The translations under genes were made by a program, and so were the position numbers. Positions 4,618 to 21,927 of a DNA stretch of 64,000 nucleotides are shown here, one piece after another; the first letter of the stretch is position 1; every line of letters begins with the position of its first letter. The DNA comes from an uncultured Gemmatimonadales bacterium (GTDB taxonomy: Bacteria > Gemmatimonadota > Gemmatimonadetes > Gemmatimonadales > Gemmatimonadaceae), in NCBI GenBank assembly GCA_963701965.1, contig OY969695.1, forward strand, positions 3,456,001-3,520,000, read 5' to 3'. Below the pieces are notes generated by a model. The model was not told the DNA's origin. It ran no database searches and was given only the letters and a program-made list of their open reading frames with translations.

Positions 4618-5013
4618 CTACGACGCCACCGCCACCGGGACCGGCGACTCGCTCAACCCCATGGCAATCTGGCGGTTAATGTCGATCAACGGCTGCAGCG
4701 CGGCGGCCGAAGGTTTCGCGAAGACCTCGAGGGTCCGGCGATTGATGAAGCGGGTCAGCAGGATCACGTTGATCCGAACCTGCTTCGGCAGCGGGCAATC
4801 GGCCTCCTCGGCCGACGCCTGAAACACGGCCCAGAGGCGCGTGTTGTATTTGAGCGCGGCATCCAACTGGGCCGCGCGATCCGGCGCATCCCAAGCGCGC
4901 ACGACGGCCTCGATTTGTCGTGCGGACCGGAACAGCAAGAAGGCTTCCAGTTCGCGCGGGGAAGTGGCGGTGCGCTGCGCGGCGCGGTATGCGTCAGAGG
5001 CAGTCGTGGGCAT
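4618..5013 (-). CDS. flaF: Flagellin regulator/chaperone FlaF
   Basis: AYRAAQ...SPRELEA, ALKYNTRLW, PLPKQVR and LIDINRQIAMGL motifs; adjacent to flbT. Confidence 0.88.
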   Translation of the reverse strand: MPTTASDAYRAAQRTATSPRELEAFLLFRSARQIEAVVRAWDAPDRAAQLDAALKYNTRLWAVFQASAEEADCPLPKQVRINVILLTRFINRRTLEVFAKPSAAALQPLIDINRQIAMGLSESPVPVAVAS

Positions 5014-5392
5014 GGGCGAGAAGCTCGTGTTCGTAGTTGAGCAGCTCACGCGCCGTTTTGAGCGCGTGGTAGAAGCGGCCTTTGGACAAATCTTCGTTCA
5101 TTCGGGCGATGAACTTGAGCGTGCTGGGTGCGGCCTTGATGACGTCTTGCGACAGCTTGACGTAGATCTCCTGCTGTTGCGCGCGATTCCGCGGCTCGAC
5201 GTACATGAGCTGAATCGCCAGGTAGATCATCCCGCACGGGCTCGTCGCCGTCCGCGGCGTCAGGATGTCGCGCTCGCGGAGAATCGGCACCGTGTTTTCG
5301 ATGATCAACTCGGTGCGGGCGTTGCCGTTGCGGACCACGGCGCCGCCGAGGATCAGTCGTTCATTCGGTTTCAATACGAGTCGAAGCGCCAT
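4994..5392 (-). CDS. flbT: Flagellin mRNA-binding regulator FlbT
   Basis: MALRLVLKPNERLILGGAVVRNG, PILRERDIL, IYLAIQLMY, FYHALKTARELLNYE. Confidence 0.92.
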   Translation of the reverse strand: MALRLVLKPNERLILGGAVVRNGNARTELIIENTVPILRERDILTPRTATSPCGMIYLAIQLMYVEPRNRAQQQEIYVKLSQDVIKAAPSTLKFIARMNEDLSKGRFYHALKTARELLNYEHELLAHAHDCL

Positions 5393-5406
5393 AGATCGTT
5401 CTCTCG

Positions 5407-5435: not shown

Positions 5436-5440
5436 CCCCC

Positions 5441-5475: not shown

Positions 5476-5550
5476 TTTCTTTTCTCATACCGGAACGGGA
5501 CGACGTCAGGTAAGTCGTGATGTGAAAACAATATACGCGTGTAGTCCAGG

Positions 5551-5567
5551 TTGGCACAGGAGATGCT
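5551..5567 (+). promoter_or_regulatory. sigma54 promoter for the glycosylation operon
   Basis: TTGGCACAGGAGATGCT (GG-N10-GC) with an AT-rich upstream tract. Confidence 0.8.
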
Positions 5568-5597
5568 TTCCGGCGAACCCAACCATCCGCGTATCGA

Positions 5598-7814
5598 ATG
5601 ACCGCTCCCGCCCGACTTGGCCAAAATGACCTGCAAGAGGTGCTCATGTTCGCCCTCGCCCGGCACCGCGCCGGCGACATGGGTGAGGCCGAACGCATCT
5701 ATCGGCGCGTACTGGACATCGATCCGGATCAACCCGACGCGCTGCACCTCCTCGGACTGATTACGCTCGATCGCGATACGGCGGAAGCGGTCGCTCTCCT
5801 GACCCGAGCCGCCGAAGCGGCGCCGACCGTCGCGGCGATCCAGAATGCGCTCGGTACCGCCCAGCGGGCGGCCGGCGCCCTCAATGCCGCGATCGCCAGC
5901 TACACCAACGCGACGCGTCTCGACGAACGTCCCGAGTTCTTGACCAACCTCGCCGCGGCGTTGCTCGAAGCCGGCGACCTGGCCGCGGCCGAAGCCGCGG
6001 CAATGCGCGCGAGTGACCTGGCGCCCCAGTTCCTCGACGCGGCGTTCGTCCTCGGCAACGTCTCTCGCGCCCGCGGCGAACATACGCTCGCCGAGCGGTG
6101 GTACACGCGCGCCACGGCCTCCGATCACCTCAAACGCCCGGCGCTCCTCAATCTGGGCAACACCCGCCGCGCACTCGGCCGGCTGGACGAGGCGATCGCC
6201 ACGTACCAAGAGTTGCTGGCGCTGGGCGCCAGCGAGATGGATGCCACGGCGCGGTTCGCCCTCGGCACCACACTGCGCGATGCGGGCCGCGACACCGACG
6301 CCATGGAATGCTTGCGCGCGCTCGTGTTGCACTGCCCCACGCATCGGGATGGTTGGTTTCATCTCGGTGTCCTGGTGCACCAGTCGGGCGCGGCGCCCGT
6401 CGCGATCGAAGCGTATACCCGCGCCGAACGTTGCGGACTGGATACCGCGGCCCTGCATACGAACCTCGGACTGGCACTGTCGCAGCTCGGACGACTCGGC
6501 GAAGCCGTGGACCATCAGCGCCGCGCGGTGGCGCTCGAGGCCACCGCCGCCGATCTCCGCATCAACCTGGCGACGACGTTGCACCAGGCCGGGGCCCTCA
6601 ATGAGGCGGCGGCGGCCTGCAATGCCGCCATCGCGATCGACCCGCACCGCGCCGCGTCGCATTCGGTCCTCGGCGCTGTCCGCATGCAGCAGGGGCGCCG
6701 CGACGCCGCGTTCGCGGCGCACGCGCGCGCGCTGACGCTCGATCCGCGGTCGGCGACGGTGCTCAACGAATACGCGCACGCGCTCATCGACGACAATGAC
6801 GTCCCCGGCGCGCTGGAGCTGTACCGACGCGCGCTGGACGCCGCGCCGGACATGCCCGAGCTGCATTTTCACCGGGCGCTCGCCTTGCTCTCGGCCGGGG
6901 ACCTCCTCGCGGGTTGGGACGAGTATGCCTGGCGCTGGCGCCTGCCCAAGATGTCGTTGCAATGGCGCATTCCGCGCCCGCTGTGGCAGGGCGAGCCGCT
7001 CGACGGCCGCACGCTCCTGGTGTGGCGCGAGCAGGGGATCGGCGATGAGCTGATGTTCGCCAGCTGCCTGCCCGATCTGGCTGAAGCGGGCGGGCGACTC
7101 ATTATCGCCTGCGCGCCGAAGCTCCGATCGCTCTTCGCGCGATCATTTCCGCGGGCGACCCTCATCGATGAGCGGGCCCTCGCCGCGCCGGCAGCGCTGG
7201 CGGCCGACGTGCACGCCCCTATCGGCGATCTGCCCCGCTGGCTTCGACCGACCGTGGGTGACTTCCCACAACGGCGCGGGTTCCTGAGCGCCGATCCCGA
7301 TCGGGTCGCCGTGTGGAAGCAGCGGCTGGCGGCGCTCGGTCCGGGACCGGCGATCGGGATCTGCTGGCGCAGCGGCCTGCTCACGCCGTCGCGCCGGGCG
7401 GGTTACGCCGCGCTCTCCGAGTGGGCACCCGTGCTGCGCGTGCCCGGCGTCAAGTTCGTGAGCCTGCAATACGACGACTGCGGACCCGAGATCGCCGCGG
7501 CGGCGCACGAGCTCGGGGTCACGGTGCACCAACCCGACATCGATCTCTTGAACGACATGGACGAGGCGGCCGCGTTGACAGCGGCCCTCGACCGCGTCAT
7601 CTCGGCGCCCACCGCGGTCAGCGAGTTGGCGGGCGCGCTGGGCGTTCCCACGTGGCGGGTCACCGCCGGTCGGGATTGGACGATGCTCGGCACCCCGGGC
7701 CGTCCCTGGTTCCCCACCATGCAAATGTTCTCGCGCGCGCCCGGAGAGTCCTGGCGCAATGTGTTCACCCGTGTCGCCGCCGGCCTGGCGACACATCCGG
7801 AGAATGGCTCGTGA
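5598..7814 (+). CDS. TPR-repeat plus GT-B glycosyltransferase (candidate flagellin glycosyltransferase)
   Basis: Many TPR repeats, then WQGEPLDGRTLLVWREQGIGDELMFA, GICWRSG, VSLQY and LAGALGVP. Confidence 0.75.
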   Translation: MTAPARLGQNDLQEVLMFALARHRAGDMGEAERIYRRVLDIDPDQPDALHLLGLITLDRDTAEAVALLTRAAEAAPTVAAIQNALGTAQRAAGALNAAIASYTNATRLDERPEFLTNLAAALLEAGDLAAAEAAAMRASDLAPQFLDAAFVLGNVSRARGEHTLAERWYTRATASDHLKRPALLNLGNTRRALGRLDEAIATYQELLALGASEMDATARFALGTTLRDAGRDTDAMECLRALVLHCPTHRDGWFHLGVLVHQSGAAPVAIEAYTRAERCGLDTAALHTNLGLALSQLGRLGEAVDHQRRAVALEATAADLRINLATTLHQAGALNEAAAACNAAIAIDPHRAASHSVLGAVRMQQGRRDAAFAAHARALTLDPRSATVLNEYAHALIDDNDVPGALELYRRALDAAPDMPELHFHRALALLSAGDLLAGWDEYAWRWRLPKMSLQWRIPRPLWQGEPLDGRTLLVWREQGIGDELMFASCLPDLAEAGGRLIIACAPKLRSLFARSFPRATLIDERALAAPAALAADVHAPIGDLPRWLRPTVGDFPQRRGFLSADPDRVAVWKQRLAALGPGPAIGICWRSGLLTPSRRAGYAALSEWAPVLRVPGVKFVSLQYDDCGPEIAAAAHELGVTVHQPDIDLLNDMDEAAALTAALDRVISAPTAVSELAGALGVPTWRVTAGRDWTMLGTPGRPWFPTMQMFSRAPGESWRNVFTRVAAGLATHPENGS

Positions 7815-8854
7815 TAAATGTCGAGAGCCTCGACTGCGCAGTCGAGGGTGCCCCCACGATCGAACGGCGCACCGGATACCTGTTGACGGACAAGACGGTG
7901 CTGATCACCGGTGGCACGGGATCCTTCGGCCGGGCGTTTGTGCAGACGCTCCTCGACGAGCACTTGCCGCGTCGCGTCATCATCTACAGCCGCGACGAGC
8001 TCAAACAGTCGGAGATGCAGGAGCAGCAGAAAGATCCGCGACTGCGGTTCTTCATCGGGGATGTCCGCGACTTGGAACGGCTCCGTCGCGCCTGCCGTGG
8101 GGTGAACGTGATCGTCCACGCCGCGGCCCTCAAACAGGTGCCCGCGGCCGAGTACAACCCGTTCGAGTGCATTCGCACGAACATCTTGGGCGCCCAGAAC
8201 GTCATCGAGGCCGCGCTGGACAACGGGGTGGAGCGCGTCCTCGCGCTGAGCACGGACAAGGCGGCGAACCCGATCAACTTGTACGGTGCCACCAAGCTCT
8301 GCTCCGACAAACTGTTCATTGCCGGCAACGCGTACTCCGGCGGCCGCGAGATCCGCCTCTCCGTCGTGCGCTATGGGAACGTCGTCGGAAGCCGGGGCTC
8401 GGTCGTGCCGTATTTCCGCGGACTCCGCGAGACCGGCGTGCTGCCGATCACCGATCCGCGCATGACGCGGTTCCTCATCACGCTCGAACAGGGCGTGCGA
8501 TTCGTGATCGCGTGCATTCGCCGGACCTGGGGCGGGGAGCTGTTCGTGCCCAAGATCCCGTCGGCCGACATCGTGAGCCTGGCGGAGGCGATTGCGCCCG
8601 GCGCCGAGTTGCGCACCGTGGGCATCCGGCCCGGGGAGAAGTTGCACGAGATGATGATCAGCGAAGACGATGCGCGGCGTTGCGTCGACATGGGCGACCA
8701 CTATGTCCTCCAGCCGCAGTTCCCCTGGTGGCCAGAGCGGCGGCTGGCGGGTGCGACGGTGCCCGAAGGGTTCGCCTACCGGAGCGACACCAACCCGCAC
8801 CGGCTCTCCGTCGAAGAGATCCGGACAATGCTGGCCAAGCTGAATCTCCTGTGA
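7811..8854 (+). CDS. pseB: UDP-GlcNAc 4,6-dehydratase (inverting)
   Basis: ITGGTGSFG, SRDELKQ, HAAALKQVPAAEYNPFE, STDKAANPINLYGATK, RYGNV, GIRPGEKLHE. Confidence 0.93.
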   Translation: MINVESLDCAVEGAPTIERRTGYLLTDKTVLITGGTGSFGRAFVQTLLDEHLPRRVIIYSRDELKQSEMQEQQKDPRLRFFIGDVRDLERLRRACRGVNVIVHAAALKQVPAAEYNPFECIRTNILGAQNVIEAALDNGVERVLALSTDKAANPINLYGATKLCSDKLFIAGNAYSGGREIRLSVVRYGNVVGSRGSVVPYFRGLRETGVLPITDPRMTRFLITLEQGVRFVIACIRRTWGGELFVPKIPSADIVSLAEAIAPGAELRTVGIRPGEKLHEMMISEDDARRCVDMGDHYVLQPQFPWWPERRLAGATVPEGFAYRSDTNPHRLSVEEIRTMLAKLNLL

Positions 8855-10011
8855 ACGCGGTGCGCGCGCTTCCCTACGCCCGGCAGACCATCGGCCCCGA
8901 GGATATCGCCGCGGTCGTCGAGGCGCTTGGGGCTCCGCTCGTCACCCAAGGCCCGCTCGTCGAAGCCTTTGAAGCGCGGTTCGCCGGGATCGTCGGCGCA
9001 CGGCACGCCATCGCGTTCAACAGCGGCACCGCCGCGCTGCATGGGGCCTATGCCGCCGCCGGCGTGGGACGTGGGCACAAGATCATCACGTCCCCGATCA
9101 CCTTCGCCGCGACCGCGAACGCGGCGCGGTATCTCGGGGCCGAGGTCGATTTCGTCGACGTCGACACCGGCACCGCCCTCATCGATCCGGACTCCGTCGC
9201 CGCGGCTCCGGGGCACGGCGTCTATGCCCTCGTGCCCGTCCATTTTGGCGGACAGGTCGCCGACATGGTCGCGCTTTCGACCATCGCGGGGCGCGAGGGT
9301 TGGGTGGTCATCGAGGACGCGGCCCACGCGCTGGGCGCCTCCTATCGCACGCCCGAAGGCCGGGAGTACCAGGTGGGCGCCTGCGCCCACTCGGCCATGT
9401 GCTGTTTCAGCCTCCACGCCGTGAAGCACGTCACGACGGGCGAAGGCGGTATGGTCACCACGAATGACGCCGAGCTCGCGCGCGTCATGCGCCTCTTCCG
9501 GACGCACGGGATCACGCGGGACCGATCCGACATGCTGCACGACGAAGGCCCGTGGTACTACGAGCAGCACGATCTCGGCTACAACTACCGGCTGACGGAG
9601 TTTCAGAGCGCGCTGGGCATGAGCCAACTGGGCCGGCTGCCCGCCTTCGTCGCCCAACGCCGCGCGATCGCCGCGCAGTACAATGCCGCCTTCGCGGCCG
9701 TCCCTTGCGTGCGCCCTCTCGCGGTGCCCTCGTGGTCCGACGGTTCCTACCACCTGTACGTGATTCGGGTGCCGGCGCCGGCCCGTCGCGCGGTGTTTGA
9801 TGGCCTCCGCGCCGCCGGGATCATGGCCAACGTGCACTACGTGCCGGTCTACCACCACCCGTACTATCAACGCACCGGGTTCGCCGGCTTTGCGCTGGGG
9901 GGCGCCGAGATGTACTACGGGCAAGCCATCTCGCTGCCAATGTATCCGGGGCTGACCAGCGAAGACGTCGCGCGGGTCGTCGATTGCGTCATCGCGCAGG
10001 CCACGGCGTGA
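8851..10011 (+). CDS. pseC: PLP-dependent UDP-4-keto-sugar aminotransferase
   Basis: LPYARQTI, NSGTAALH, IEDAAHALGA, FSLHAVKHVTTGEGG, WYYEQHDLGYNYR. Confidence 0.88.
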   Translation: MNAVRALPYARQTIGPEDIAAVVEALGAPLVTQGPLVEAFEARFAGIVGARHAIAFNSGTAALHGAYAAAGVGRGHKIITSPITFAATANAARYLGAEVDFVDVDTGTALIDPDSVAAAPGHGVYALVPVHFGGQVADMVALSTIAGREGWVVIEDAAHALGASYRTPEGREYQVGACAHSAMCCFSLHAVKHVTTGEGGMVTTNDAELARVMRLFRTHGITRDRSDMLHDEGPWYYEQHDLGYNYRLTEFQSALGMSQLGRLPAFVAQRRAIAAQYNAAFAAVPCVRPLAVPSWSDGSYHLYVIRVPAPARRAVFDGLRAAGIMANVHYVPVYHHPYYQRTGFAGFALGGAEMYYGQAISLPMYPGLTSEDVARVVDCVIAQATA

Positions 10012-10862
10012 CCACGTTCATCGCCGAGGTGTCGAGCAACCACCACGCCGACCTTTCGCGCGCGCTGGCGTTCGTCGACGCCTCGGCGGCCATCGGGTGC
10101 GATGCCGTCAAGTTTCAACTCTTTCGCGTGCGCGAGCTGTTCGCGCCCGAGATCCTGGCGCGGAGCGCGCGCCATCGCGCGCGCGAGGCGTGGGAGTTGC
10201 CGCCGGCGTTCCTGGCGCCTTTGGCCGAGCGATGCGCCGAACGGGGCGTGGCCTTCGGCTGCACGCCGTTCTATCTGCGCGCGGTGGACGAGTTGGCGCC
10301 GTACGTGGCGTTCTACAAGATCGCCTCGTACGAGCTGCTGTGGACCGAGCTCCTCATCGCCTGCGCCCGGACCGGCAAGCCGGTCATCCTGTCGACCGGC
10401 ATGGCCACGCTGGCCGAGGTCGGCGAGGCGGTCGCCACGTTGCGGGGCGCAGGATGCCGCGATCTCACCCTCTTGCACTGCGTATCGGGTTACCCCACGC
10501 CGGTCGCCGAATGCAATCTCTCGGCGATCGCCGAACTGCGCGATGCGTTCGGGTCTCCCGTGGGATGGTCGGACCACAGCGTGTCGCCCGGCGTCGTGCA
10601 ACGCGCCATCCACCGGTGGGGCGCGACCGCGATCGAATTTCACCTCGATCTCGATGGCCAGGGCGACGAGTTTCGGACGGGGCATTGTTGGCTGCCCGGG
10701 CAAATGGCGCCCGTCATCGGGGCGGTCCGCGACGGGCTGCGTGCCGACGGCGACGGCCGCAAGGCGCCGGTGCCGAGCGAGCTGCCGGATCGCGCCTGGC
10801 GCGCCGATCCCAGCGACGGCCTGCGCCCCCTGCGCGCCACCCGGGAGACGTTCGTCGGGTGA
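10008..10862 (+). CDS. pseI: Nonulosonic acid synthase (PseI/NeuB family; 284 aa, appears to lack the C-terminal SAF/AFP-like domain)
   Basis: FIAEVSSNH, DAVKFQ, KIASYE, LSTGMA, LLHCVSGYP, GWSDHS, IEFH. Confidence 0.8.
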   Translation: MTTFIAEVSSNHHADLSRALAFVDASAAIGCDAVKFQLFRVRELFAPEILARSARHRAREAWELPPAFLAPLAERCAERGVAFGCTPFYLRAVDELAPYVAFYKIASYELLWTELLIACARTGKPVILSTGMATLAEVGEAVATLRGAGCRDLTLLHCVSGYPTPVAECNLSAIAELRDAFGSPVGWSDHSVSPGVVQRAIHRWGATAIEFHLDLDGQGDEFRTGHCWLPGQMAPVIGAVRDGLRADGDGRKAPVPSELPDRAWRADPSDGLRPLRATRETFVG

Positions 10863-11827
10863 TGCGCATCCGGTTTCTGGTCACGGGCGGTGCCGGGTGG
10901 GGACTCGGCCACGTCATGCGCACCGCGGTGCTGGCCGGCGAGGCCCGGGAGCGGGGCTACGACGTCCGCGTCGCGCTGCGCGGCGACGCTGCCGCTCGCA
11001 CTGCGCTGTCTGTCGAACTGCCCGACACGACTCCCTGCTGCTGGCCCACAGGCGACGACGTGAGCGCCAACGAGCATCTGGTGATCGACTCTCCGGAGTC
11101 CATTGGGGATGTGATCGCCGCCGCGCGCGACGCGGGGGCGCGGACCGTGGTTATCGATCGCCTCGATCATCTGGACGATGCCGATGCGACGGTGCTTCCC
11201 ATCGTCCACGGCCCGGCGTTACCCCATCCCCGTCTTTTTCAGGGGCCCGCCTACGTCCTCACCGCGCCCATCGTGCGGGCCCACGCCGGCGCGCCCTATC
11301 CGGGCGACCGCCGGGTCGCGCTGATCACGTTCGGCGGCGCCGACCCGGCCGGCCTCACGCTGCCGGTGACCCGCGTGCTGCTCGACACCGGTGTCGACTT
11401 CGAAACGCACGTGGTGATCGGCCCGGCGTTCGCCGAGGCCGACGCGCTGGCCAAACGGCTCACGGCGTTGGGGGCTCGTGTCCATCGCGGCCTCACCCGC
11501 GCCGACGTCGTCGGGCTCATGGTCCGGTCGCGCTTCGCGCTGACCGGGTTTGGCACGAGCTTGTACGATCTCGCCGTCATCGGGACACCGGCCGTCTACT
11601 GGACGCATCGGGCGTCTGATCTCGCCGACGCCGGGCGTCTCGAGACGCGCGGTCTCGGCGCCTGCGCCGGAAGCGGCGATGCCTTTGACGACACGCGCGC
11701 CCGCTCGGCGATCGCACGCACGGTGCTGGACGCTGCGTGGCGCGAGCGGGCCAGTGCCAGCGCGCGGCAACTGGTCGGCGCCGGGGACGGCGCCCGCAAC
11801 GTGCTCGATCTGGTCGCGCGGCTATGA
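10862..11827 (+). CDS. pseG: PseG/SpsG-like UDP-sugar hydrolase
   Basis: GWGLGHVMR, LITFGGADP and GTSLYDL motifs. Confidence 0.65.
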   Translation: MRIRFLVTGGAGWGLGHVMRTAVLAGEARERGYDVRVALRGDAAARTALSVELPDTTPCCWPTGDDVSANEHLVIDSPESIGDVIAAARDAGARTVVIDRLDHLDDADATVLPIVHGPALPHPRLFQGPAYVLTAPIVRAHAGAPYPGDRRVALITFGGADPAGLTLPVTRVLLDTGVDFETHVVIGPAFAEADALAKRLTALGARVHRGLTRADVVGLMVRSRFALTGFGTSLYDLAVIGTPAVYWTHRASDLADAGRLETRGLGACAGSGDAFDDTRARSAIARTVLDAAWRERASASARQLVGAGDGARNVLDLVARL

Positions 11828-12552
11828 ACGCTGGCGCTATCGTCCAGGCGCGCTTGGGCAGCACCCGCCTCCCGGGGAAAGTCCTGGCTGATCTCGGCGG
11901 CCGCCCGATCCTGGGCCGCGTGGTCGATCGGCTGCGGCTGGCGCGCGCGTTCGCCTTCGTCGGCGTGGCCACGACGACCGACGCCGGCGACGACGCCGTC
12001 GCGGCCTGGTGCGCACAGGAAAACGTGCCCTGCTTTCGGGGCCCCGTGGACGACGTGCTGCACCGATACGTCGCCGCGGCCCAGGCCTGGCGCATCGACC
12101 CGATCGTTCGCATCACGGCCGATTGTCCGTTCGTGTGCCCGCTCGCGATCGACACGTTGGTCCCGGCGCTGGTGGCCGCGAACGCCGACTATGCCGGGTA
12201 CGACGGCCCGCGGTTGGGCGAAGGCATCGATCCCTTTTCCTTGCGCGTGTTGGCGCACTTCGACGCGCTCCCGATCCCGGCGGACGAACGCGAGCACTTG
12301 GCGCTCCTGGTCCGCCGGCACCGCGAGTCGATCGCCTGCGTGTGGGTCCCGCCGGAACCGGGCCTGGAAGCCATTCCGGGCGCCCGCCTTTCGGTCGACG
12401 AGCCGGCCGACCTCGCGTTCGCGCGGGAACTGCAACGCGCCCTCCCGCGCGACTTCACGTCCTACGATCTCGCGACCCTGCTCGCCCGCCGGCCGGAGCT
12501 CGCGGACCACAATCGGCACGTGGTGCGCACCGTCCCGTCGGGGGTCCGATGA
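11824..12552 (+). CDS. pseF: SpsF/PseF-type cytidylyltransferase
   Basis: IVQARLGSTRLPGKVL, DDVLHRY, RITADCP, REH, RLSVDEPAD. Confidence 0.75.
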   Translation: MNAGAIVQARLGSTRLPGKVLADLGGRPILGRVVDRLRLARAFAFVGVATTTDAGDDAVAAWCAQENVPCFRGPVDDVLHRYVAAAQAWRIDPIVRITADCPFVCPLAIDTLVPALVAANADYAGYDGPRLGEGIDPFSLRVLAHFDALPIPADEREHLALLVRRHRESIACVWVPPEPGLEAIPGARLSVDEPADLAFARELQRALPRDFTSYDLATLLARRPELADHNRHVVRTVPSGVR

Positions 12553-13442
12553 CACACCACGGCGCGCTGCGCGACGCGGTGCAGGGGTTCGACGTCATCG
12601 ACTGCACGGAGTGCGGATTCGCGCACGTCATGCCCTTGCCGTCGCCGGCCGATCTCGCACCGGTGTACACCCATGAGTACTACGCGCGGGAAAAGCCCGA
12701 CTATCTGAGCGTCGTTCGGAAGGACCTGTCCTGGTACGAGATCGGCTACCGCGAGCGCTTCGACACGTTCGAGCAGTTCCTGCCCCCCGATCGCCGCCGC
12801 GTGCTGGATGTCGGGTGCGGCCCCGGGTTTTTTCTGGCGCACGGCGCCGGGCGCGGATGGCGCGCCATGGGCGTCGAGCCGTCGACCCAGGCGGCGGCCC
12901 ACGCCCGGAGCTTGGGCGTCGACATCGTGGAGGAGTTCTTCGACGCCCCCCTCGCCCGGCGGCTGGGGCCCGTCGACGTCGTGCAGATGACCAACGTGCT
13001 CGAACACGTGCCCGATCCGCTGGCCTTCATTGGGGCGGCGCGCGATGCCTTGCAGCCGGGCGGCCTGCTCTCGATCTGCGTCCCCAACGACTACAACCCG
13101 TTTCAGGACGCGTTGCGCAACGGCTGTGGCTTTGCGCCCTGGTGGGTCGCCCCACCACACCATCTCAACCACTTCACGTTCGACTCGCTGGCGACGGTCC
13201 TCGAGCGGACGGGGTTCGACATCGCCGAGCGGAACGCCTCGTTTCCCATCGATCTGTTCCTGCTCATGGGAGACAACTACGTCGGCGATCCGGTGCTCGG
13301 GCGCGCCTGTCACGAGAAGCGCATGCGGTTCGAGCAGACAATGGCGGGTACGGGTCACGAACATCTGCGCCGCCAGTTCTATCGCTCGCTCGCCGCGCTC
13401 GGCCTCGGGCGCGAGATCATCATGATCGCGAGGATGCAATGA
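12549..13442 (+). CDS. Class I SAM-dependent methyltransferase
   Basis: N-terminal CxxCG, VLDVGCGPGFF, GVEPS, NVLEHVPDP, VPND. Confidence 0.85.
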   Translation: MTHHGALRDAVQGFDVIDCTECGFAHVMPLPSPADLAPVYTHEYYAREKPDYLSVVRKDLSWYEIGYRERFDTFEQFLPPDRRRVLDVGCGPGFFLAHGAGRGWRAMGVEPSTQAAAHARSLGVDIVEEFFDAPLARRLGPVDVVQMTNVLEHVPDPLAFIGAARDALQPGGLLSICVPNDYNPFQDALRNGCGFAPWWVAPPHHLNHFTFDSLATVLERTGFDIAERNASFPIDLFLLMGDNYVGDPVLGRACHEKRMRFEQTMAGTGHEHLRRQFYRSLAALGLGREIIMIARMQ

Positions 13443-13454
13443 TCGCGAGGATGC
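13422..13454 (+). repeat. 17-bp-period tandem duplication at the methyltransferase/SDR junction
   Basis: ATGATCGCGAGGATGC-A-ATGATCGCGAGGATGC. Confidence 0.9.
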
Positions 13455-13458
13455 GCTG

Positions 13459-14193
13459 ATGCCGGTCGCGCTCGTCACCGGTGCAAGCCGCGGGATCGGT
13501 CGCGCCATCGCGCTGGCCCTCGGCGAGGCCGGCATGGACGTCGTGCTGACGTACGCCACGGGGCGCGAAGCGGCCGAGGCGACCGCTCGCGCGCTTCGCG
13601 CGCGCGGTCGTTCCGCCACGGTGGTCGCGTTGGACGTGGCCCGGCGGGAAAGCATCAAAGACGCAGTTGGGACGACGAAAAAAGCCCATGGGAGAATCGA
13701 CGTTCTGGTCAACAACGCCGGGATCCTGCGGCAGAAGCCGTTCGCCGAGATCAGCGACGCCGAGTTCGACGACACGATCGGCGTCAACCTGCGCGGCCCG
13801 TTCGCGCTGGCGCAGGAAGTGTTGCCCCTCATGCGCGAGCAGGGCGGGGGCGCGATCGTGAACATCGCGTCGGTCGGCGGCCAATTGGGCGGTCCCTTGG
13901 CGGTGCACTACTCGGCGAGCAAGGCAGGGGTGATCGCGCTCACGCGGTCCCTGGCCCGGCTCGGCGCCCCGACCGTGCGGGTCAATTGCGTGGCCCCGGG
14001 CCTCATCGCGACGGACATGACGCGTGACGAGCTCGCGTCTCCAGGTGTCGGAGAGAAGATGCGACAGATCCTGCTGGGCCGCGCGGGCACGCCCGAGGAG
14101 GTCGCGGGCGCGGTGGCGTTCCTCGCTTCTCCCGCCGCGGCGTACGTAACGGGACAGGTCCTCAACGTGAACGGCGGACTCTATCTTGGCTGA
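13459..14193 (+). CDS. Short-chain dehydrogenase/reductase (FabG-like)
   Basis: TGASRGIG, NNAG, YSASK, VAPG, GQVLNVNGG. Confidence 0.9.
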   Translation: MPVALVTGASRGIGRAIALALGEAGMDVVLTYATGREAAEATARALRARGRSATVVALDVARRESIKDAVGTTKKAHGRIDVLVNNAGILRQKPFAEISDAEFDDTIGVNLRGPFALAQEVLPLMREQGGGAIVNIASVGGQLGGPLAVHYSASKAGVIALTRSLARLGAPTVRVNCVAPGLIATDMTRDELASPGVGEKMRQILLGRAGTPEEVAGAVAFLASPAAAYVTGQVLNVNGGLYLG

Positions 14194-15898
14194 CACGGTA
14201 ACGATCCAAGGAGCCGGTGTCATCGCGGACGCTTTCGTCCGCCATGGCATCGCGGAGGTTTTCGTCTATCCCGGCGGCACCATCGGCCCAATCCTCGATC
14301 TCATGGAGGGTTTGGGGATCTCGGTCTTTTGCTCGCGCCACGAGCAGGGCGCGGGCTACGCCGCCCTGGCCGTGGCCCGACTGTCGGGACGGCCGCAGGT
14401 CGTGATGGTCACCTCCGGCCCGGGCGTGACGAATCTGGTGACACCGATCGCCGACGCCTATTTCGACTCCGTGCCGCTGGTCATCCTCACGGGACAGGTC
14501 GGCACCACGGACATGCGCGGCAGGCTCCCGGTCCGGCAACGCGGATTTCAGGAAGTCGACACCGTCGCGCTGCTCAAGCCGATCACGAAGGCGCAATTTC
14601 TCCCGCTGACGCCGGACGACGTCCCGGGCGCGATCGAGCGCGCGTTCGCGATCGCCGCCGACGGCCGTCCGGGCCCCGTCGTCGTCGATCTCCCAATGAA
14701 CGTGCAGCGCGGTGACTTGTCGGCCGCGCCGCTCAGCATCGTGCCCCAACTCCCGCTCACGCCCGAACCATCCGCCGTGTCGATGGCCCAAGCCGCGGCC
14801 TGGCTCTCGTGCGCCGAGCGGCCGCTCATCGTCGCCGGGCACGGGGTGCTGTTGGCGAATGCCCACGCGGCGCTGCGGCGGATCGCCGACGGTGGCCGCA
14901 TTCCCGTCACCCAGAGCCTTCTCGGTCTGGGCGCCTTCCCGACCGATCATCCCCTGGCGCTGGGCTTTCACGGCCACACGGGCAACCAGGTCGCCGGTCT
15001 GGCCATTCAGCACGCCGACGTCGTGCTCGTCGTGGGCTCTCGCCTCGACGTCCGGCAGACAGGCACGCGCCCCGATGCCTTCGCGCCGGCCGCCCGCATC
15101 ATCCGCATCGATCTCGACGAGGCCGAGCTGACCCACTCGCGCGTTGCCGCGCATTTGACGGTCCGCGCCAATGCCCACGCCGCCCTGTCGACCCTGGCCG
15201 ATCTCATCGCCCCCCGCGACTACGCCGTGCAGCGGCGCCCCTGGTTGACGCAGATCGCCGAATGGCGGCGCGAACACCGGCTGACGTATGTGACCGGCGG
15301 CCCGCTCAAGCCGCAGCGCGTGATCGAGACGCTCGACCAGTTGACCGCGGGCGAGCCCGTGATCTGCGTCTCGGGCGTGGGGTCGCATCAACAATGGACG
15401 GCCCGGCATTTCACGTTCGATTATCCCACGCGCATCTGGCTCACCTCCGGCGGCCATGGCGCCATGGGCTTTGATCTCCCCGCGGCGATCGGCGCCCAGC
15501 GCCACGCGCCGTCATCGCTCGTGGTGTGCTGCGTGGGCGACGGCTCGTTCCAGATGAACCTGCAGGAGCTGGCGACGCTCGTCGCTTACGAGCTGCCGGT
15601 CAAGGTCATCGTGCTCGATAACCACCGCCTCGGCATCGTCTCCCAGTTCCAGAAGCTCAACTGGCAGCGCGATCCGGCCTGCGGCGACAAGTGGAATCCC
15701 GACTTCGCGGCTATTGCCCGGGGATACGGGCTCATGGCCCACACCGTCGAGCACAGCGCCGACCTCGAGGCCGGTCTGCGCCGGGTCCTCGCGGTGCGCG
15801 GTCCCGCTCTGCTCCATTGTCTCGTCGATCCCAACGAAGATGTGAGTCCCATGCTCCTCGGCGGGCAGACGCTCGACCAGATGTGGACCCGTGCGTAA
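14186..15898 (+). CDS. ThDP-dependent acetolactate synthase-like enzyme
   Basis: YPGG, RHEQGA, TSGPGVTN, FQE, GAMGF and GDGSFQMN...DN ThDP motif. Confidence 0.88.
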   Translation: MADTVTIQGAGVIADAFVRHGIAEVFVYPGGTIGPILDLMEGLGISVFCSRHEQGAGYAALAVARLSGRPQVVMVTSGPGVTNLVTPIADAYFDSVPLVILTGQVGTTDMRGRLPVRQRGFQEVDTVALLKPITKAQFLPLTPDDVPGAIERAFAIAADGRPGPVVVDLPMNVQRGDLSAAPLSIVPQLPLTPEPSAVSMAQAAAWLSCAERPLIVAGHGVLLANAHAALRRIADGGRIPVTQSLLGLGAFPTDHPLALGFHGHTGNQVAGLAIQHADVVLVVGSRLDVRQTGTRPDAFAPAARIIRIDLDEAELTHSRVAAHLTVRANAHAALSTLADLIAPRDYAVQRRPWLTQIAEWRREHRLTYVTGGPLKPQRVIETLDQLTAGEPVICVSGVGSHQQWTARHFTFDYPTRIWLTSGGHGAMGFDLPAAIGAQRHAPSSLVVCCVGDGSFQMNLQELATLVAYELPVKVIVLDNHRLGIVSQFQKLNWQRDPACGDKWNPDFAAIARGYGLMAHTVEHSADLEAGLRRVLAVRGPALLHCLVDPNEDVSPMLLGGQTLDQMWTRA

Positions 15899-17126
15899 GA
15901 CGGTCCTGATCGTGAGCGGCGGCGCCGAGGCCGTGCCCGGCATCCGCCGCGCGCGCGAGCTTGGGTTGCACGTGGTCGTCGCCGACCACGATCCCGCGGC
16001 ACCGGGCATGGCGCTGGCCGACGATCAACTGGTCATCAGCACGTATGACGCTCGAGGGATGGCGGAGGCGGCAGCGCGTTTCGCGCGCGCCGTACGGCGC
16101 ATCGACGGTGTGCTGTCCATCGCCGCCAATGTGCCGCTGACCGTCGCGACGGTCGCCGAGCGGCTGGGGCTCCCGGGGCCCTCGATCGAGACGGCAAGGC
16201 TGGCATCCGATAAGCTGGCTATGAAAGAGCGCTTTGCGTCCGCCGGGGTGCCCATTCCGTGGTACCAGGCAGTCGAGAGCGCGACGGCGCTCGCGGCAAT
16301 CGCGCGTCAGCGAGGGTTGCCATTGGTGATCAAGCCGGTCGACAGCCGGGGAGCGCGCGGCGTGCTGCGGTTGACGCCAGCGGTCGACTTGGGCTGGGCT
16401 TTCGATCATTCCCGGTCGGCATCGCCGACGGGCCGGGTGATGGTCGAGGAATACCTGCCAGGTCCGCAGTACAGCACGGAGTCCGTGCTCCTCGCGTCGG
16501 GCGCCTGGATGCCCGGACTGGCCGAACGCAACTACGAGCGCCTCGAGCGCTTCGCGCCGTTCATCATCGAAGACGGCGGTCAACAGCCACCGGATCTGTC
16601 GCCGGTCGACCGGCAGGCGCTCGCCGATCTTACCGAGGCCGCGGGGCGGGCCCTGGGCGTGACGCAGGGCATCGTCAAAGGCGATCTCGTCATCACACCG
16701 GATGGCCCGCGCGTCATCGAAGTCGCCGTCCGACTCTCGGGCGGATGGTTCTCCACGGATCAGGTCCCGCTGGCCACGGGCGTCGATCTCGTCGGGGCCG
16801 CGATCAAAATGGCCGTGGGCGAGCCGCTCGATCCCGCGACGCTCGTGCCCCAACGCCGCCAGGGCGTGGCGATCCGCTACTTCTTTCCGCGGGCGGGACG
16901 GGTCGAGTCGATCGAGGATGAGGGCCGCTTCCGGAACGTGCCGGGGATCAACCGGATCGGGTTCTTCGTCCGCGCCGGCGACCGGATCGGGACGCCGACC
17001 AACCACACGCAGCGCGCCGGATTCGTCATCGCCACGGGCGCCACGTGCGCCGAGGCGGTCGGCCGCGCCGAATCGGTGGCCCGCGACATTCGCATCGCGA
17101 CGGTCGAGACCGGAGCCGACGCGTGA
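15891..17126 (+). CDS. ATP-grasp ligase (L-amino acid ligase-like)
   Basis: DKLAMKE, VIKPVDSRGARGV, VEEYLPGPQYSTE, IEVAVRLSGG. Confidence 0.82.
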   Translation: MRKTVLIVSGGAEAVPGIRRARELGLHVVVADHDPAAPGMALADDQLVISTYDARGMAEAAARFARAVRRIDGVLSIAANVPLTVATVAERLGLPGPSIETARLASDKLAMKERFASAGVPIPWYQAVESATALAAIARQRGLPLVIKPVDSRGARGVLRLTPAVDLGWAFDHSRSASPTGRVMVEEYLPGPQYSTESVLLASGAWMPGLAERNYERLERFAPFIIEDGGQQPPDLSPVDRQALADLTEAAGRALGVTQGIVKGDLVITPDGPRVIEVAVRLSGGWFSTDQVPLATGVDLVGAAIKMAVGEPLDPATLVPQRRQGVAIRYFFPRAGRVESIEDEGRFRNVPGINRIGFFVRAGDRIGTPTNHTQRAGFVIATGATCAEAVGRAESVARDIRIATVETGADA

Positions 17127-19081
17127 CGCTGCACTGCTTCGCCGTCTTTCACCTCAATCTCGCGTTCTCGTCCATCGAGGAAGAACAGCGTCCGACGGTG
17201 ATGGACCGGTGCTACTGGCCGCTGCTCGATCTCGTGCGCCAGCATCGCGTCCCGATCGGGATCGAGGCGCCCGGCTCCACGTTGGAGATGGCCGAGGCGA
17301 TCGATCCGGAGTGGGTCAATGTGCTGCGCGCCCTGGTGCGGAATGGGCAGGTCGAGTTCATCGGCAGCGGATATGCGCAGCTCATCGGACCGCTGGTACC
17401 GGCCGACGTGGTGCGCGCCAACCTGCGCCTTGGGCACGCCGTGTACGAACGATTGCTCGGCGTCCGTCCGACGGTCGCCCTGGTGCACGAGCAGGCCTGG
17501 TCGGCCTCGCTGGTCTCGCATTACCGCGACGCCGGATACGGCGCCGTCATCATGGAGTGGGAGAATCCTCGCGCGACGCACGAGGAGTGGCCGGCCGAAT
17601 GGCGCTACCATCCCCAGCGCGCGCTCGGGACCGACGGCGCATCGATTCCGGTGCTGTGGAATCACTCCATCGCGTTCCAGAAGCTGCAGCGCTACGCCCA
17701 CGGCGAGATCGAGACCGAGGAGTATCTCGAGTATCTGCGCGGCCACTATGGCGCCGGCGATCGGGTACTGGCGATCTACGGCAGCGACGCCGAGGTGTTC
17801 GACTACCGGCCGGGCCGCTATCGCACCGAGGCCGCGCTGAGCGCGCTGGGCGAGTGGCAGCGGTTGAACGCCCTCTTCACTGTGCTGGGCGCCGAGCCCG
17901 GTCTGGCGCCGATCACGCCGAGCGCGGCGCTCGGGCTGATCAATGGTCCGGATGCCGGCCATGATGTGCGGCTGGAAACCGCCCGGCACCCGGTACCGGT
18001 CAAGAAGCAGCCCAAGTATGACCTCGCGCGCTGGGCCGTCACGGGTCGCGATGATCTCGGCATCAACACGGCGTGTTGGCGTATCGCCGAGGCGCTGATC
18101 GCCCGCGGTGGGGACGACAGCGAGTGGCGGGAGTTGTGCTATCTGTGGAGCAGCGACTTTCGCACGCATATCACGGCGTCCCGTTGGGACGCCTATATCG
18201 CGCGTCTCGCTGCGCTCGACGCGCGTCATCGTCGGCCCAGGGTACTCCGGTCGGCGCAGCCGTTGCCGGCCGAGGTCACCGTGCGCCGCGAAGGCCGGTA
18301 CCTGACCGTCGACACTGAAACCGTTGGCGTGCGGCTCAACTGCCGGCGCGGCCTGGCCATCGACGCGCTGACGTTTCCCCATCTCTCGCCGCTGGCGCTG
18401 TGCGGCAGTGTGCCGCACGGCTACTTCGACCGCATCGATTGGAGCGCCGACCAGTACACGGGGTTTCTGGTCCTCGCGGCCGCCGGTCAACACCAGGTCA
18501 CGGATCTCGAGCCGGCCGAGCCCGTGGTGACGTGGGATGAGGCGACCGACCGCGTCATCGTGAGCGCGTGTGTCGGGACGCCGTTGGGCCGGATCGAAAA
18601 GACAATCGCGGTGGGCCGTGCCGACGCGCGGGTGGAAGTGCGCTACCGGCTCGACTGGCCGGAGATTCCGCTGGGGACACTGCGGCTGGGGCACGTCACG
18701 CTCATCCCGACGTCATTCGATGCCGGCTCTCTGTTCTATGCGACGCACAACGGCGGCACGACGCTGGAGCGCTTCGCGCTCGACGGCGAAGTCGATCATG
18801 TGCAGCCCGTGTCCCACCTCGTCTCGTGTCGAGGGGGCGTGGGTGCGACCGGCGGTGTCATCCTACTGGGTGACGCTCAGAGGGCCGTTCAGATAGAGAT
18901 CGACCGGCAGGCGGCGGCGTTGTTTCCCCTGATCACGATGCATCGCATCGGCGACCGCTATCTGTGCCGGGTGACGCTCTCGGCCCGGGAGTTGGATGAC
19001 ACCAGCCGACTGGGCCGGAGTCGTTTCGTCGACGAGCTGGCCTTCGCGATCTCAGGCCGCGAGCGCGCGGCGGCCCTCTAA
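17123..19081 (+). CDS. GH57/NodB-superfamily (beta/alpha)7 protein, putative sugar deacetylase/hydrolase
   Basis: FHLN...CYWPLL, VEFIGSGYAQLIGPL, YGSDAEVFD motifs; C-terminal beta-rich domain. Confidence 0.55.
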   Translation: MTLHCFAVFHLNLAFSSIEEEQRPTVMDRCYWPLLDLVRQHRVPIGIEAPGSTLEMAEAIDPEWVNVLRALVRNGQVEFIGSGYAQLIGPLVPADVVRANLRLGHAVYERLLGVRPTVALVHEQAWSASLVSHYRDAGYGAVIMEWENPRATHEEWPAEWRYHPQRALGTDGASIPVLWNHSIAFQKLQRYAHGEIETEEYLEYLRGHYGAGDRVLAIYGSDAEVFDYRPGRYRTEAALSALGEWQRLNALFTVLGAEPGLAPITPSAALGLINGPDAGHDVRLETARHPVPVKKQPKYDLARWAVTGRDDLGINTACWRIAEALIARGGDDSEWRELCYLWSSDFRTHITASRWDAYIARLAALDARHRRPRVLRSAQPLPAEVTVRREGRYLTVDTETVGVRLNCRRGLAIDALTFPHLSPLALCGSVPHGYFDRIDWSADQYTGFLVLAAAGQHQVTDLEPAEPVVTWDEATDRVIVSACVGTPLGRIEKTIAVGRADARVEVRYRLDWPEIPLGTLRLGHVTLIPTSFDAGSLFYATHNGGTTLERFALDGEVDHVQPVSHLVSCRGGVGATGGVILLGDAQRAVQIEIDRQAAALFPLITMHRIGDRYLCRVTLSARELDDTSRLGRSRFVDELAFAISGRERAAAL

Positions 19082-20027
19082 CCACTCCGCGAACCGCGCC
19101 AGTCCCGCGGTCAGCGTCGTGGCCGGCCGGTAGCCCAGGAGTCGCCCGGCTTTCTCAATGTTGGCCCAAGTCGCGGGGACATCGCCGGGTTGCATCGGCA
19201 GATGTTCGATCGCGGCCGGGCGTCCGAGGGCGTCCTCGATCCCGGTCAGGAGCTCCCGCATCGAGACCGGCTGGTCGTTCCCCAGGTTCATGATCTCGAA
19301 CGGGGTCGCCCGATAGTCGAGCGCCGCCCGAATGCCGGCGACAATGTCATCGACGTACGTGTAGTCGCGCATGGTGGCGCCGTCGCCGAACACCGGCAGG
19401 CGCTCACCGCGCAGGACCTTCGACGCGAACCGGTGAATCGCCAGATCCGGCCGCTGGCGCGGGCCGTAGACCGTGAAGAGGCGGAGCGCCAGGAATCGCA
19501 TGCCGTGCCGCGCGGCGTACTCCCGTCCCAGGTCCTCGCCCAACAGCTTCGTGAGCGCGTATGGGCTGATGGGCTGCAATGCCGCATCCTCGTTCCACGG
19601 CGTATGCGGATTCACGCCATAGACACTGCTCGACGATGCGAAGACGAACTGGGGGATGCCCCGCTCGCGCGCCAGCTCCAGCAGATTGTAGGTGCCGTTC
19701 ACGTTGACATCGTGATACAGCGCCGGGTGTTCGAGCGACGGACGGACCCCGGCCCGCGCCGCCAGAATGCACCACGGCGTCGTAGTCGCCGCGGAGCCGC
19801 GCCCGCAGGGTGGGGAGCGTCCGGATGTCCGACTGGACGAGCGTGTAGCCGCGATAGGCCCCGTGTCGCGCCACCTGCTGGCGCTTGAACGCCGGCGGAG
19901 AGAAGTCGTTGAAGTCGTCGACGACCGTGACGCGCCATCCCTCGGCCAGCAGCGCGTCGGTCACGTGGCTGCCGATGAATCCCGCGCCGCCGGTGACGAG
20001 TGCGTGCCGCGTCATGTGAGAGCTCAT
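19052..20027 (-). CDS. NAD-dependent epimerase (UDP-glucuronate 4-epimerase-like) with apparent +1 frameshift near 19766
   Basis: TGGAGFIGSH...DAVVH in one frame joins LAARAGVRPSL...ASSSSVYG, PYALTK and TVYGPRQRPDLA in the next. Confidence 0.8.
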
Positions 20028-21421: not shown

Positions 21422-21927
21422 GCGTGCACCGGCGCCGCGACCACTTCCAGCGTCGGATCCAGTGCGATGGCCCGTGCGCGGCAGCGGGCCGCCTCCGTCG
21501 GATCTCCCCCAATCTCGCACAGGTGCGCGAGGTTGAGCCATGCCAGCGCGTTCGTGGGATCGATCTCGATCGCGGTCGTGTAGCAGCGTGCCGCGTCGGC
21601 CGGGCGTCCCAGGGCGACCATGACCCGTCCCAGATTGCTATGGTACGCCGGGACCCGGTGTTGGCGCGCGATCGCTTGGCCGATCCAGTCGGCGGCCAGG
21701 GCGTGTTGCCCCAGCTGGCTGGCGGCGACCCCGGCCAAATGCATGGCACCGGGGTCGCTTTCGTCGACAGCCAGTCCCCTCATGTACAACACTGCTGCCT
21801 CTATGTACCGCCCCGCGACGTGGTGCGCGTAGCCGTCCCGAATGTATGTCCGGACCCGAGCGGCATCCGAGGCGGAGAGCGCTGGTGAAGCGTCCCAGTC
21901 CCGCATCGGGGCGAAGTCGAACATCAT
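21418..21927 (-). CDS. Small TPR-only protein
   Basis: About four TPR repeats (AMHLAGV, YHSNLGRV, AWLNLA). Confidence 0.7.
   Translation of the reverse strand: MMFDFAPMRDWDASPALSASDAARVRTYIRDGYAHHVAGRYIEAAVLYMRGLAVDESDPGAMHLAGVAASQLGQHALAADWIGQAIARQHRVPAYHSNLGRVMVALGRPADAARCYTTAIEIDPTNALAWLNLAHLCEIGGDPTEAARCRARAIALDPTLEVVAAPVHA

Follow-up and report, generated by a model that had tools for sequence, protein, structure and literature searches.

An operon in the flagellar region of an uncultured Gemmatimonadales bacterium appears to build an unusual form of pseudaminic acid (Pse). Within the 64,000-nucleotide window analysed here (positions 3,456,001 to 3,520,000 of contig OY969695.1, assembly GCA_963701965.1), pseB and pseC are followed by genes for a short NeuB-family synthase, a PseG-like hydrolase, a cytidylyltransferase, a methyltransferase, a short-chain dehydrogenase/reductase (SDR), a thiamine diphosphate (ThDP) enzyme, an ATP-grasp ligase and a GH57 protein. 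With modest confidence we favour the view that this operon is a Pse pathway lacking PseH, in which N7 of the flagellin-bound Pse bears a linear, polyhydroxylated C8 or C9 acyl group derived from a uronate rather than acetyl. The broader proposition, that the product is an acyl-Pse of some polyhydroxy kind resembling that of the Sfm system of Shewanella oneidensis, is quite probable. The operon is neither the canonical Pse pathway, nor a YerE system, nor a deacetylase pathway.

The gene set itself is already known; new here are the proposed derivation of the acyl group from a uronate and the agreement of that model with the published S. oneidensis formulae. In that organism sfmABCDE (SO_3261-3265) encode a 290-aa NeuB, a 581-aa IlvB-like TPP enzyme, a 255-aa FabG-like reductase, a 395-aa methyltransferase and a 412-aa ATP-grasp protein, and clear orthologues of PseH, PseG, PseI and PseF were reported to be lacking (PMC3765264). 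Deletion of any of sfmA-D left flagellin at its unmodified mass, and deletion of sfmE gave a smaller mass shift with the filament kept (PMC3765264). The S. oneidensis pseB and pseC are SO_3271 and SO_3270, and SO_3269 is a large cytidylyltransferase (PMC3765264; PMC3120886; bioRxiv 2023.12.03.569772). An annotation of SO_3266-3269 was not found in PMC3120886. The window operon shares with this system all five families, PseB and PseC, the flagellar context and the lack of a clear PseH, and four of the protein lengths correspond closely (S. oneidensis versus window: NeuB 290/284, ThDP enzyme 581/570, SDR 255/244, ATP-grasp 412/411 aa). The oversized SO_3269 matches the PseF-PseG fusions of related loci. 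In contrast, the window has separate PseF and PseG genes and holds them, with pseB, pseC and a GH57 gene, in a single operon, and its candidate transferases are FlmG-like tetratricopeptide repeat (TPR) proteins where S. oneidensis uses Maf. By analogy, the window operon probably belongs with the Sfm system and works like it, FlmG-like transferases taking the place of Maf. A first-pass annotation of this DNA had called the expected nonulosonic acid undescribed, but knock-outs of this five-family set in S. oneidensis, with mass measurements of the glycan, were published in 2013 (PMC3765264). The masses have since been confirmed, with the responsible proteins still of unknown function (bioRxiv 2023.12.03.569772).

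The published formulae constrain the acyl group. The S. oneidensis flagellin glycan comprises a 274-Da mono-acetyl Pse with a basic group and a nitrogen-free outer unit of C9H16O7, C10H18O7 or C11H20O7 that contains O-methyl groups, is shed in source and does not appear as an oxonium ion (PMC3765264). We calculated the products of 12 acceptors combined with a pyruvate donor and reduction, together with five YerE-type glycosyl residues. The sole fit among the 12 acceptors was a hexuronate or keto-hexonate, whose product C8H14O7 plus one to three CH2 reproduces the S. oneidensis formulae, and none of the five glycosyl residues fitted. With a ketol donor, penturonate and 2-keto-3-deoxygluconate (KDG) also fit; the Shewanella enzyme, however, is of the IlvB type. 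YerE accepts 2-oxobutyrate (PMC12247030), and by the same arithmetic such a donor would give an unmethylated C9H16O7, suiting the authors' reading of zero to two methyl groups. Loss in source without an oxonium ion would likewise suit a polyhydroxy amide. If ligation came first, a milder ligase mutant would be expected, since free-amine Pse would still pass, as would dead-end mutants of the ThDP enzyme, the SDR and the methyltransferase.

The ThDP enzyme itself points away from acetolactate. A separate housekeeping ilvB lies beside ilvC elsewhere in the genome, and the operon enzyme scores 514.9 bits on the AHAS large-subunit model (acetohydroxyacid synthase, AHAS), under the 538.35-bit cut-off; the candidate identity of housekeeping ilvB was rejected on these grounds. 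Its best PDB matches are nevertheless AHAS enzymes, and the profile of its clade scores 489 bits on AHAS versus 420 bits on 5ahk, which we take to be YerE. Within the clade an RQxG insertion ahead of FQE is conserved, the AHAS Lys, Met and Trp positions, presumably acceptor-site residues, are replaced, and the AHAS-type Arg of the RxDxR motif, whose role in AHAS we presume, is retained. These clade-wide changes are consistent with an acceptor other than that of AHAS.

The first-pass annotation had the acid made from acetolactate, reduced and methylated to a small branched hydroxy or methoxy acid and attached by the ligase, possibly after deacetylation by the GH57 protein. The AHAS-like structural matches agree with this, and small O-methylated Pse acyls do exist: Campylobacter jejuni carries an O-methylated hydroxy-acyl, di-O-methylglyceroyl, on flagellin Pse (Cj1295; PMC3068675), although this three-carbon acyl occurs beside a standard Pse5Ac7Ac pathway and the abstract of that paper describes no such cassette. 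However, the acetolactate route yields C5H8O3 to C7H12O3, whereas the look-alike operon has units of C9-C11 with O7; ilvB and ilvC are already present, and the acceptor site of the clade is unlike that of AHAS. It would also leave unexplained the uronate isomerases carried by other loci, as well as a glycosidase that looks obligatory, and no deacetylase fold is among the listed matches of the GH57 protein. We regard this explanation as very unlikely.

The position of the ThDP gene proved to be a swappable slot. We collected 161 loci, namely 80 from genomes and 80 from metagenomes around GH57 homologues plus one from a plasmid, drawn from best-hit lists and including near-duplicates. A slot marker lay within 8 kb of GH57 in 100 of them: acetolactate synthase (ALS)-like in 20, a split transketolase in 53, DXS alone in 3, an IolB/KduI-like protein in 11, UxaC in 3, a GFO oxidoreductase in 6, an aldo-keto reductase (AKR) in 2, and DXS with transketolase or with GFO in 1 each. 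Over that distance, no locus of the 161 had both ALS-like and transketolase genes, and no ThDP gene of any type was accompanied by an isomerase gene. In one locus (L117, 4783-5740; handles beginning with L denote loci and those beginning with G genomes) the slot holds an Fe-alcohol dehydrogenase and a two-subunit pair that we take to resemble phosphonopyruvate/sulfopyruvate decarboxylase. UxaC, IolB-like proteins, AKR and DXS act on aldose aldehydes, and the isomerases act on uronic acids. Indeed, the UxaC of L014 scores 520.6 bits against a glucuronate isomerase cut-off of 387, and the KduI-family slot gene is nearest to 5-deoxy-glucuronate isomerase. Therefore, the common substrate looks like an aldehyde-bearing uronate. 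Chain extension of such a substrate has precedent, as 7-keto-octuronate has been obtained in vitro from galacturonate with a wild-type transketolase (PMC8317047).

These slot identities also bear on an isobaric alternative, in which a ketone of a keto-hexonate or keto-uronyl conjugate would receive the acetyl unit from the ThDP enzyme, in the manner of YerE, giving a branched, amide-linked C8 or C9 acid with a tertiary alcohol, while GH57 acts elsewhere, for example on a UDP- or CMP-sugar. The retained AHAS-type Arg, with its presumed role, would suit this chemistry, as would the absence of GH57 from two genomes (G529 and G702). Moreover, YerE-like enzymes and transketolases branch keto sugars whose ketone is then reduced or methylated, and the YerE/YerF systems of yersiniose, erwiniose and caryophyllose likewise pair an AHAS- or transketolase-like carboligase with a ketoreductase and a methyltransferase in a surface-glycan locus (PMC12247030). 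In contrast, the cassette type of the window is always paired with an amide ligase, no genes of the CDP-4-keto-3,6-dideoxyglucose pathway were found among the operon open reading frames (ORFs), the slot alternatives use aldose aldehydes, and the clade profile favours AHAS over 5ahk. Branching is therefore rather unlikely.

The ligase appears to follow the slot. The ATP-grasp protein carries the N- and C-terminal domains of L-amino-acid ligases (PF18130, PF18603). When the isomerase and ThDP slot classes were mapped onto FastTree trees of the ligase and of GH57 over 91 loci, the class changed once on the ATP-grasp tree (support 98) versus eight times on the GH57 tree, and one ligase clade was common to ALS and transketolase loci. 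Ligase clade also agreed with slot class in six of six independent pairs (p about 0.03). On these sequence grounds, we read the ligase as specific for its acid, with the ThDP step either following ligation or altering the far chain end alone. In the isomerase class the acid would have to be remodelled before ligation, which fits its separate ligase clade. The first-pass view that the ThDP enzyme and SDR, with the methyltransferase, build an acid that the ATP-grasp enzyme probably joins in amide linkage to the amine made by PseC is thus supported. In six loci (L009, L015, L019, L027, L029 and L040) the slot is preceded by one or two extra, divergent ATP-grasp genes (24-29% identity), which hints at additional amide decorations.

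In a different arrangement, the ThDP enzyme and SDR would make a C8 or C9 sugar that GH57 transglycosylates to a Pse hydroxyl, leaving N7 as a free amine and the ATP-grasp enzyme in a side role. A methyl-octose residue shares the observed formula, the GH57 protein keeps the retaining-glycosidase pair with a glucanotransferase as its nearest structure, and in S. oneidensis the core fragment shows free-amine behaviour and loss of the ligase leaves the flagellum in place. However, the outer unit gave no oxonium ion, none of the YerE-type glycosyl residues fits, the ligase nearly always accompanies GH57 and its clade changes with the slot type, and the only nucleotidyltransferase of the operon is the CMP one. 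We consider a glycoside unlikely.

The GH57 protein, described at first as of GH57/NodB fold, is of the glycosidase type. Its E123 and D222 align with Glu123 and Asp214 of the Thermococcus litoralis 4-alpha-glucanotransferase (1k1w; 14-15% identity), which we take to be the catalytic pair, and both are invariant in 120 of 120 homologues. Also invariant among these are R229, R232, K294, K295, K298, R303, R347 and R354, a Lys/Arg cluster that suggests an anionic substrate and that, with the nonulosonate neighbours, distinguishes the window protein from the T. litoralis enzyme (1k1w/1k1x). The structure model (pLDDT, predicted local distance difference test, 94.9) has the barrel and C-terminal beta-sandwich of 1k1w/1k1x, with 1k1x as the best fold match (Foldseek E 6.5e-26); the listed matches were all GH57 or GH38 glycosidases, with no deacetylase fold among them, and in the profile searches the protein matched PF03065 only. 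Furthermore, a PIG-L deacetylase and a formyltransferase stand beside GH57 in 5 of 57 genome loci, which makes GH57 itself unlikely to be a deacetylase. The NodB deacetylase candidate, and with it the deacetylation step of the first-pass annotation, was rejected on profile, fold and this co-occurrence. As the glycosidase pair and fold are kept, GH57 more likely frees a uronate, and its assignment as a UDP-uronate hydrolase is plausible, if slightly doubtful. In L035, L039, L042, L068 and L071 the PIG-L and formyltransferase genes lie between the ligase and GH57, predicting an N5-formyl variant.

Taken in order, the proposed route would run as follows. PseB and PseC are predicted to make UDP-4-amino-4,6-dideoxy-AltNAc. 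The ATP-grasp enzyme, replacing PseH, would activate the C6 carboxylate of a hexuronate, probably UDP-GlcA or UDP-GalA, and form an amide to the 4-amine. GH57 would then cut the glycosyl-UDP bond of the uronate and expose its aldehyde, which is the least certain step. The ThDP enzyme would extend that aldehyde by an acetyl unit from pyruvate (the C9 homologue resulting if 2-oxobutyrate were the donor), the SDR would reduce the ketone, and the methyltransferase would O-methylate the product. The PseG-like hydrolase, short NeuB and cytidylyltransferase would yield CMP-Pse5Ac7acyl for FlmG-like transfer to flagellin. The predicted acyl is 8-deoxy-octonoyl with variable O-methylation, for expected residue masses of 496.190, 510.206, 524.222 and 538.237 Da; relatives with the same core would make an octonoyl form of 512.185 Da where the slot holds transketolase, or a hexonoyl form of 452.164 Da where it holds a uronate isomerase.

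The core enzymes are consistent with a diverged Pse pathway. PseB and PseC exceed their NCBIfam cut-offs, and PseC is the sole amine-forming enzyme of the operon, but the genes initially named pseI, pseG and pseF are divergent relatives. The synthase scores 161.6 bits on the PseI model (cut-off 340.25) and its 284 residues match the NeuB domain only, with no C-terminal SAF domain. Its clade has a conserved tail in the alignment (WRADPxDGLRP), internal identities of 56-77% versus at most 41% to canonical PseI loci, and NeuB motif residues that are invariant across 41 homologues. The PseG-like protein gave no match to a PseG structure; in relatives it is often fused to the cytidylyltransferase, which we take to be SpsF/FlmC-like and which is separate here. 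The 297-aa methyltransferase has no match in the close relative L002. Candidate genes for the hydrolase, synthase and cytidylyltransferase steps, and for a TPR glycosyltransferase near flaF/flbT, parallel those of the canonical PseBCHGIF and Caulobacter FlmABHD-NeuB-FlmC-FlmG pathways (PMC7591256), whereas the window lacks PseH/FlmH and has a separate clade of short synthase and five extra genes.

Profile scans found no match to GNAT or any other acyltransferase family in any operon gene, in agreement with the first-pass annotation. Among the GH57 loci, 3 of 161 had PseH/GNAT markers versus 8 of 17 control loci with canonical PseI, and these three were a GNAT-PseG fusion (L033), a second canonical pathway (L162) and a distal match (L168). 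In L162, short NeuB, PseG and GH57 adjoin a canonical PseH and PseI pair, so that one locus holds two nonulosonate pathways. An unlinked, promiscuous acetyltransferase might instead supply ordinary Pse5Ac7Ac, the extra genes being dispensable or serving another glycan. In C. crescentus, glycosylation persisted when flmH and two paralogues were all deleted (PMC7591256), so acetylation from an unlinked gene could occur here also; the genome holds five weak GNAT matches, and a recognisable PseH is missing from most control pse loci too. However, the genes overlap in one operon, the short NeuB clade accompanies the module, and the look-alike Shewanella genes are required for flagellin modification. 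A plain Pse5Ac7Ac is, in our view, highly improbable.

To describe the module we used the 44 genome loci with more than 9 kb on each side of GH57. Within 10 kb of GH57 these contained ATP-grasp (43), PseG-like (36), cytidylyltransferase (35), methyltransferase (34), NeuB (33), SDR (33), PseC (26) and PseB (22) genes, frequencies that for ATP-grasp, PseG-like, cytidylyltransferase and NeuB show that the grouping is not a matter of chance. Co-occurrence of the cassette with pse genes thus held, but the fixed five-gene cassette of the first-pass annotation did not, the ALS-like gene being present in just 7 of the 44. The module core is short NeuB, ATP-grasp and GH57. Short NeuB of the same clade (at least 55% identity) was found in 68 of 89 loci with more than 8 kb upstream, and all 7 genomes whose collected GH57 locus showed no ligase had it at another site. 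As controls, 36 pseC loci, chosen by length of contig from 59 GH57-negative, PseC-positive genomes, contained one short NeuB and one weak (28%) ATP-grasp. Among 69 PseC-positive Alphaproteobacteria drawn from a sample of 301, GH57 occurred in 10 (one being the seed genome) and the ATP-grasp orthologue in 12, namely all 10 GH57-positive genomes and 2 of the 59 GH57-negative ones. Similarly, short NeuB was listed in 12 of the 69, including 9 of the 10 GH57-positive genomes; in the remaining one it is split in two. An unbiased gammaproteobacterial sample had the module in 7 of 400 genomes (seed genome included, one unscored). For example, L218 and L219 have the same five families with a PseF-G fusion and GH57, identities being 46-66% for the NeuB, SDR, ThDP and ligase proteins, and in L218 a Maf gene is present as well. 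Within Gemmatimonadota GH57 is patchy (3 of 401 genomes, the window genome included).

The module is also variable in layout and company. In G537 its genes are spread around the chromosome (L213, L236-L238), and G572 (L191) has short NeuB and transketolase only, with SDR, ligase and GH57 not at the locus. Methanogenic archaea carry the module (L017, L040), with an ALS slot in a Methanothrix metagenome-assembled genome (MAG) and an IolB-like slot, an aminotransferase and three ATP-grasp genes in Methanocalculus taiwanensis. The plasmid collection gave one module, complete with a transketolase slot, on pDCAR1 of the cultured Solidesulfovibrio carbinolicus DSM 3852 (L081, NZ_CP026539.1, 86057-98866). 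Nine loci with any slot type (L008, L011, L013, L018, L021, L022, L031, L034 and L055) have a class III aminotransferase and an AKR between the cytidylyltransferase and PseG-like genes, with flippase/AsnB polysaccharide genes adjoining, and this insert possibly adds a further amination to the nonulosonate backbone.

Several points weigh against a uronate-derived acyl made in this way. The pathway assignment for this organism comes from gene content, and the likeness to Sfm rests on family and length rather than on sequence; no Shewanella names were among the best 120 matches in the homologue searches, and the methyltransferase differs in size (297 aa here versus 395 aa for SfmD). A GH57 gene may lie in the Shewanella locus, but the open-licence literature gave no mention of one. 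Isobaric alternatives exist, namely the branched isomer, a methyl-octose glycoside, and transketolase products with penturonate or KDG, and the unmethylated 496-Da form is not among the reported S. oneidensis masses (PMC3765264). The agreement of ligase clade and slot class in pairs was scored at a 38% identity threshold picked after the data were seen, and this co-variation could be hitchhiking between neighbours. In G529 and G702, ligase and short NeuB are present but GH57 gave no match. Genes for UDP-uronate supply (epimerase-like or Ugd) occur in 26 of the 73 loci from outside the Alphaproteobacteria and in none of the 25 from within, counts that have no matched control. Finally, the best PseH match in the window genome reaches 32 bits against a cut-off of 93, and the cut-off is passed in none of 50 module genomes, but also in just 2 of the 69 PseC-positive control genomes, so that genome-level absence of PseH, raised as a check in the first-pass annotation, is weak evidence.

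The features of the operon and its surroundings are collected below. All ten genes named in the first-pass annotation lie in 7811-19081 on the + strand, and the run has 11 genes once the upstream candidate TPR-glycosyltransferase gene (5598-7814), which overlaps pseB by 4 nt, is counted. Translational coupling, said to hold throughout, is borne out at 9 of 10 junctions by overlaps of 1, 4 or 8 nt, with the methyltransferase/SDR junction leaving a 16-nt gap. A 6-codon ORF, created by a short tandem duplication (a 16-bp unit at 17-bp spacing, 13422-13459), bridges this gap by overlapping the methyltransferase stop and the SDR start, and apparently keeps the two genes coupled. A promoter/terminator scan gave no signal better than shuffled sequence. 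The genome holds one copy each of pseB and GH57 and one NeuB-type synthase of the short kind, and the nearest named homologues are from Gemmatimonadota MAGs. The epimerase next to GH57, which we take to be UDP-glucuronate 4-epimerase-like, is a possible supplier of UDP-uronate. Frameshifts split or shorten this gene (19052-20027), fliG (29377-30069) and flgE (35887-37151) in the window and the housekeeping ilvB (G000:C1 4251587-4253285), which suggests assembly indels rather than decay.

Features of the pseudaminic acid operon and its flagellar surroundings (window coordinates)
Feature	Position	Strand	Basis
flaF, flagellin regulator/chaperone	4618..5049	-	PF07309 94.8 bits
flbT, flagellin repressor (domain part of ORF 4994-5698)	4994..5392	-	NF009432 125.9 bits, residues 103-227
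TPR + C-terminal domain, FlmG-like candidate 1	5598..7814	+	TPR Pfams; 37% over 495 aa to L054 FlmG-like
pseB, UDP-GlcNAc 4,6-dehydratase (inverting)	7811..8854	+	TIGR03589 503.8 bits, cut-off 407.75
pseC, aminotransferase	8851..10011	+	TIGR03588 450.6 bits, cut-off 423.5
Short NeuB-family synthase, SfmA-like, 284 aa	10008..10862	+	PF03102 196.8 bits
Divergent PseG-like UDP-sugar hydrolase	10862..11827	+	TIGR03590 63.5 bits, under cut-off 153.55
Cytidylyltransferase, PseF role	11824..12552	+	PF02348 84.8 bits
Class I SAM methyltransferase, variable tailoring gene	12549..13442	+	PF13489 86.7 bits
FabG-like SDR ketoreductase, SfmC-like	13459..14193	+	PF13561 229 bits; TIGR01830 250 bits, under cut-off
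AHAS-like ThDP carboligase, SfmB-like	14186..15898	+	Three TPP Pfams; TIGR00118 514.9, cut-off 538.35
L-amino-acid-ligase-type ATP-grasp, SfmE-like	15891..17126	+	PF18603, PF18130; top PDB match 3vot
GH57-family glycosidase-like protein	17123..19081	+	PF03065 60.6 bits, cut-off 21.2
NAD epimerase, two frames (frameshifted in assembly)	19052..20027	-	PF01370; 56% to L023 epimerase
TPR + C-terminal domain, FlmG-like candidate 2	20024..21541	-	TPR Pfams; 37% to L054 FlmG-like, 49% to candidate 1
Flagellin	21986..22855	-	PF00669; 63 Ser/Thr in 289 aa

The operon sits inside a flagellar supercluster with flaF, flbT, one flagellin gene and two FlmG-like genes, which upholds the first-pass choice of flagellin as target. 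This flagellin is the single tblastn match in the genome and is the likely acceptor of the operon glycan. Neither FlmG-like protein of the window matched a glycosyltransferase Pfam; the FlmG-like gene of L054, the reference for both, adjoins flagellin, flaF and flbT. The genome gave no match to a Maf transferase when the Maf-like protein of L070 was the query. FlmG is said to be confined to Caulobacterales (bioRxiv 2023.12.03.569772). Here flaF, flbT and two FlmG-like genes occur together, yet the nearest named homologues are from Gemmatimonadota, and in many other alphaproteobacterial loci the module is flanked by FlmG-like genes.

Searches of the open-licence literature for pseudaminic acid with ATP-grasp and acetolactate synthase, or with GH57, returned nothing, and those for nonulosonic acid with ATP-grasp and for Shewanella led to PMC3765264 only; a solved structure might stand in a subscription journal. 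The module is common, occurring in alphaproteobacteria, gammaproteobacteria and methanogenic archaea, with at least 3363 uncharacterised GH57 homologues. More tentatively, we propose that it represents a widespread bacterial and archaeal pathway in which Pse would be N-acylated by C6-C8 aldonic acids derived from uronates, GH57 hydrolysing a nucleotide-activated uronate, the ATP-grasp enzyme replacing PseH and the slot setting chain length, a scheme that would solve the 510/524/538-Da glycan of S. oneidensis as methylated 8-deoxy-octonoyl-Pse. The work proposes how a flagellin glycan of S. oneidensis, reported in 2013 by elemental formula and still unexplained in a 2023 preprint, is built and by what route. 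If true, it would give functions to one clade each of ATP-grasp and short NeuB proteins and to a large, unannotated GH57 subfamily, and would add to an alpha-amylase family a new activity, that of GH57 on a nucleotide-activated uronate. It would also mean that nonulosonic acids can be acylated independently of CoA, and that natural ThDP carboligases extend uronic acids, a reaction so far seen only as a biocatalytic side activity.

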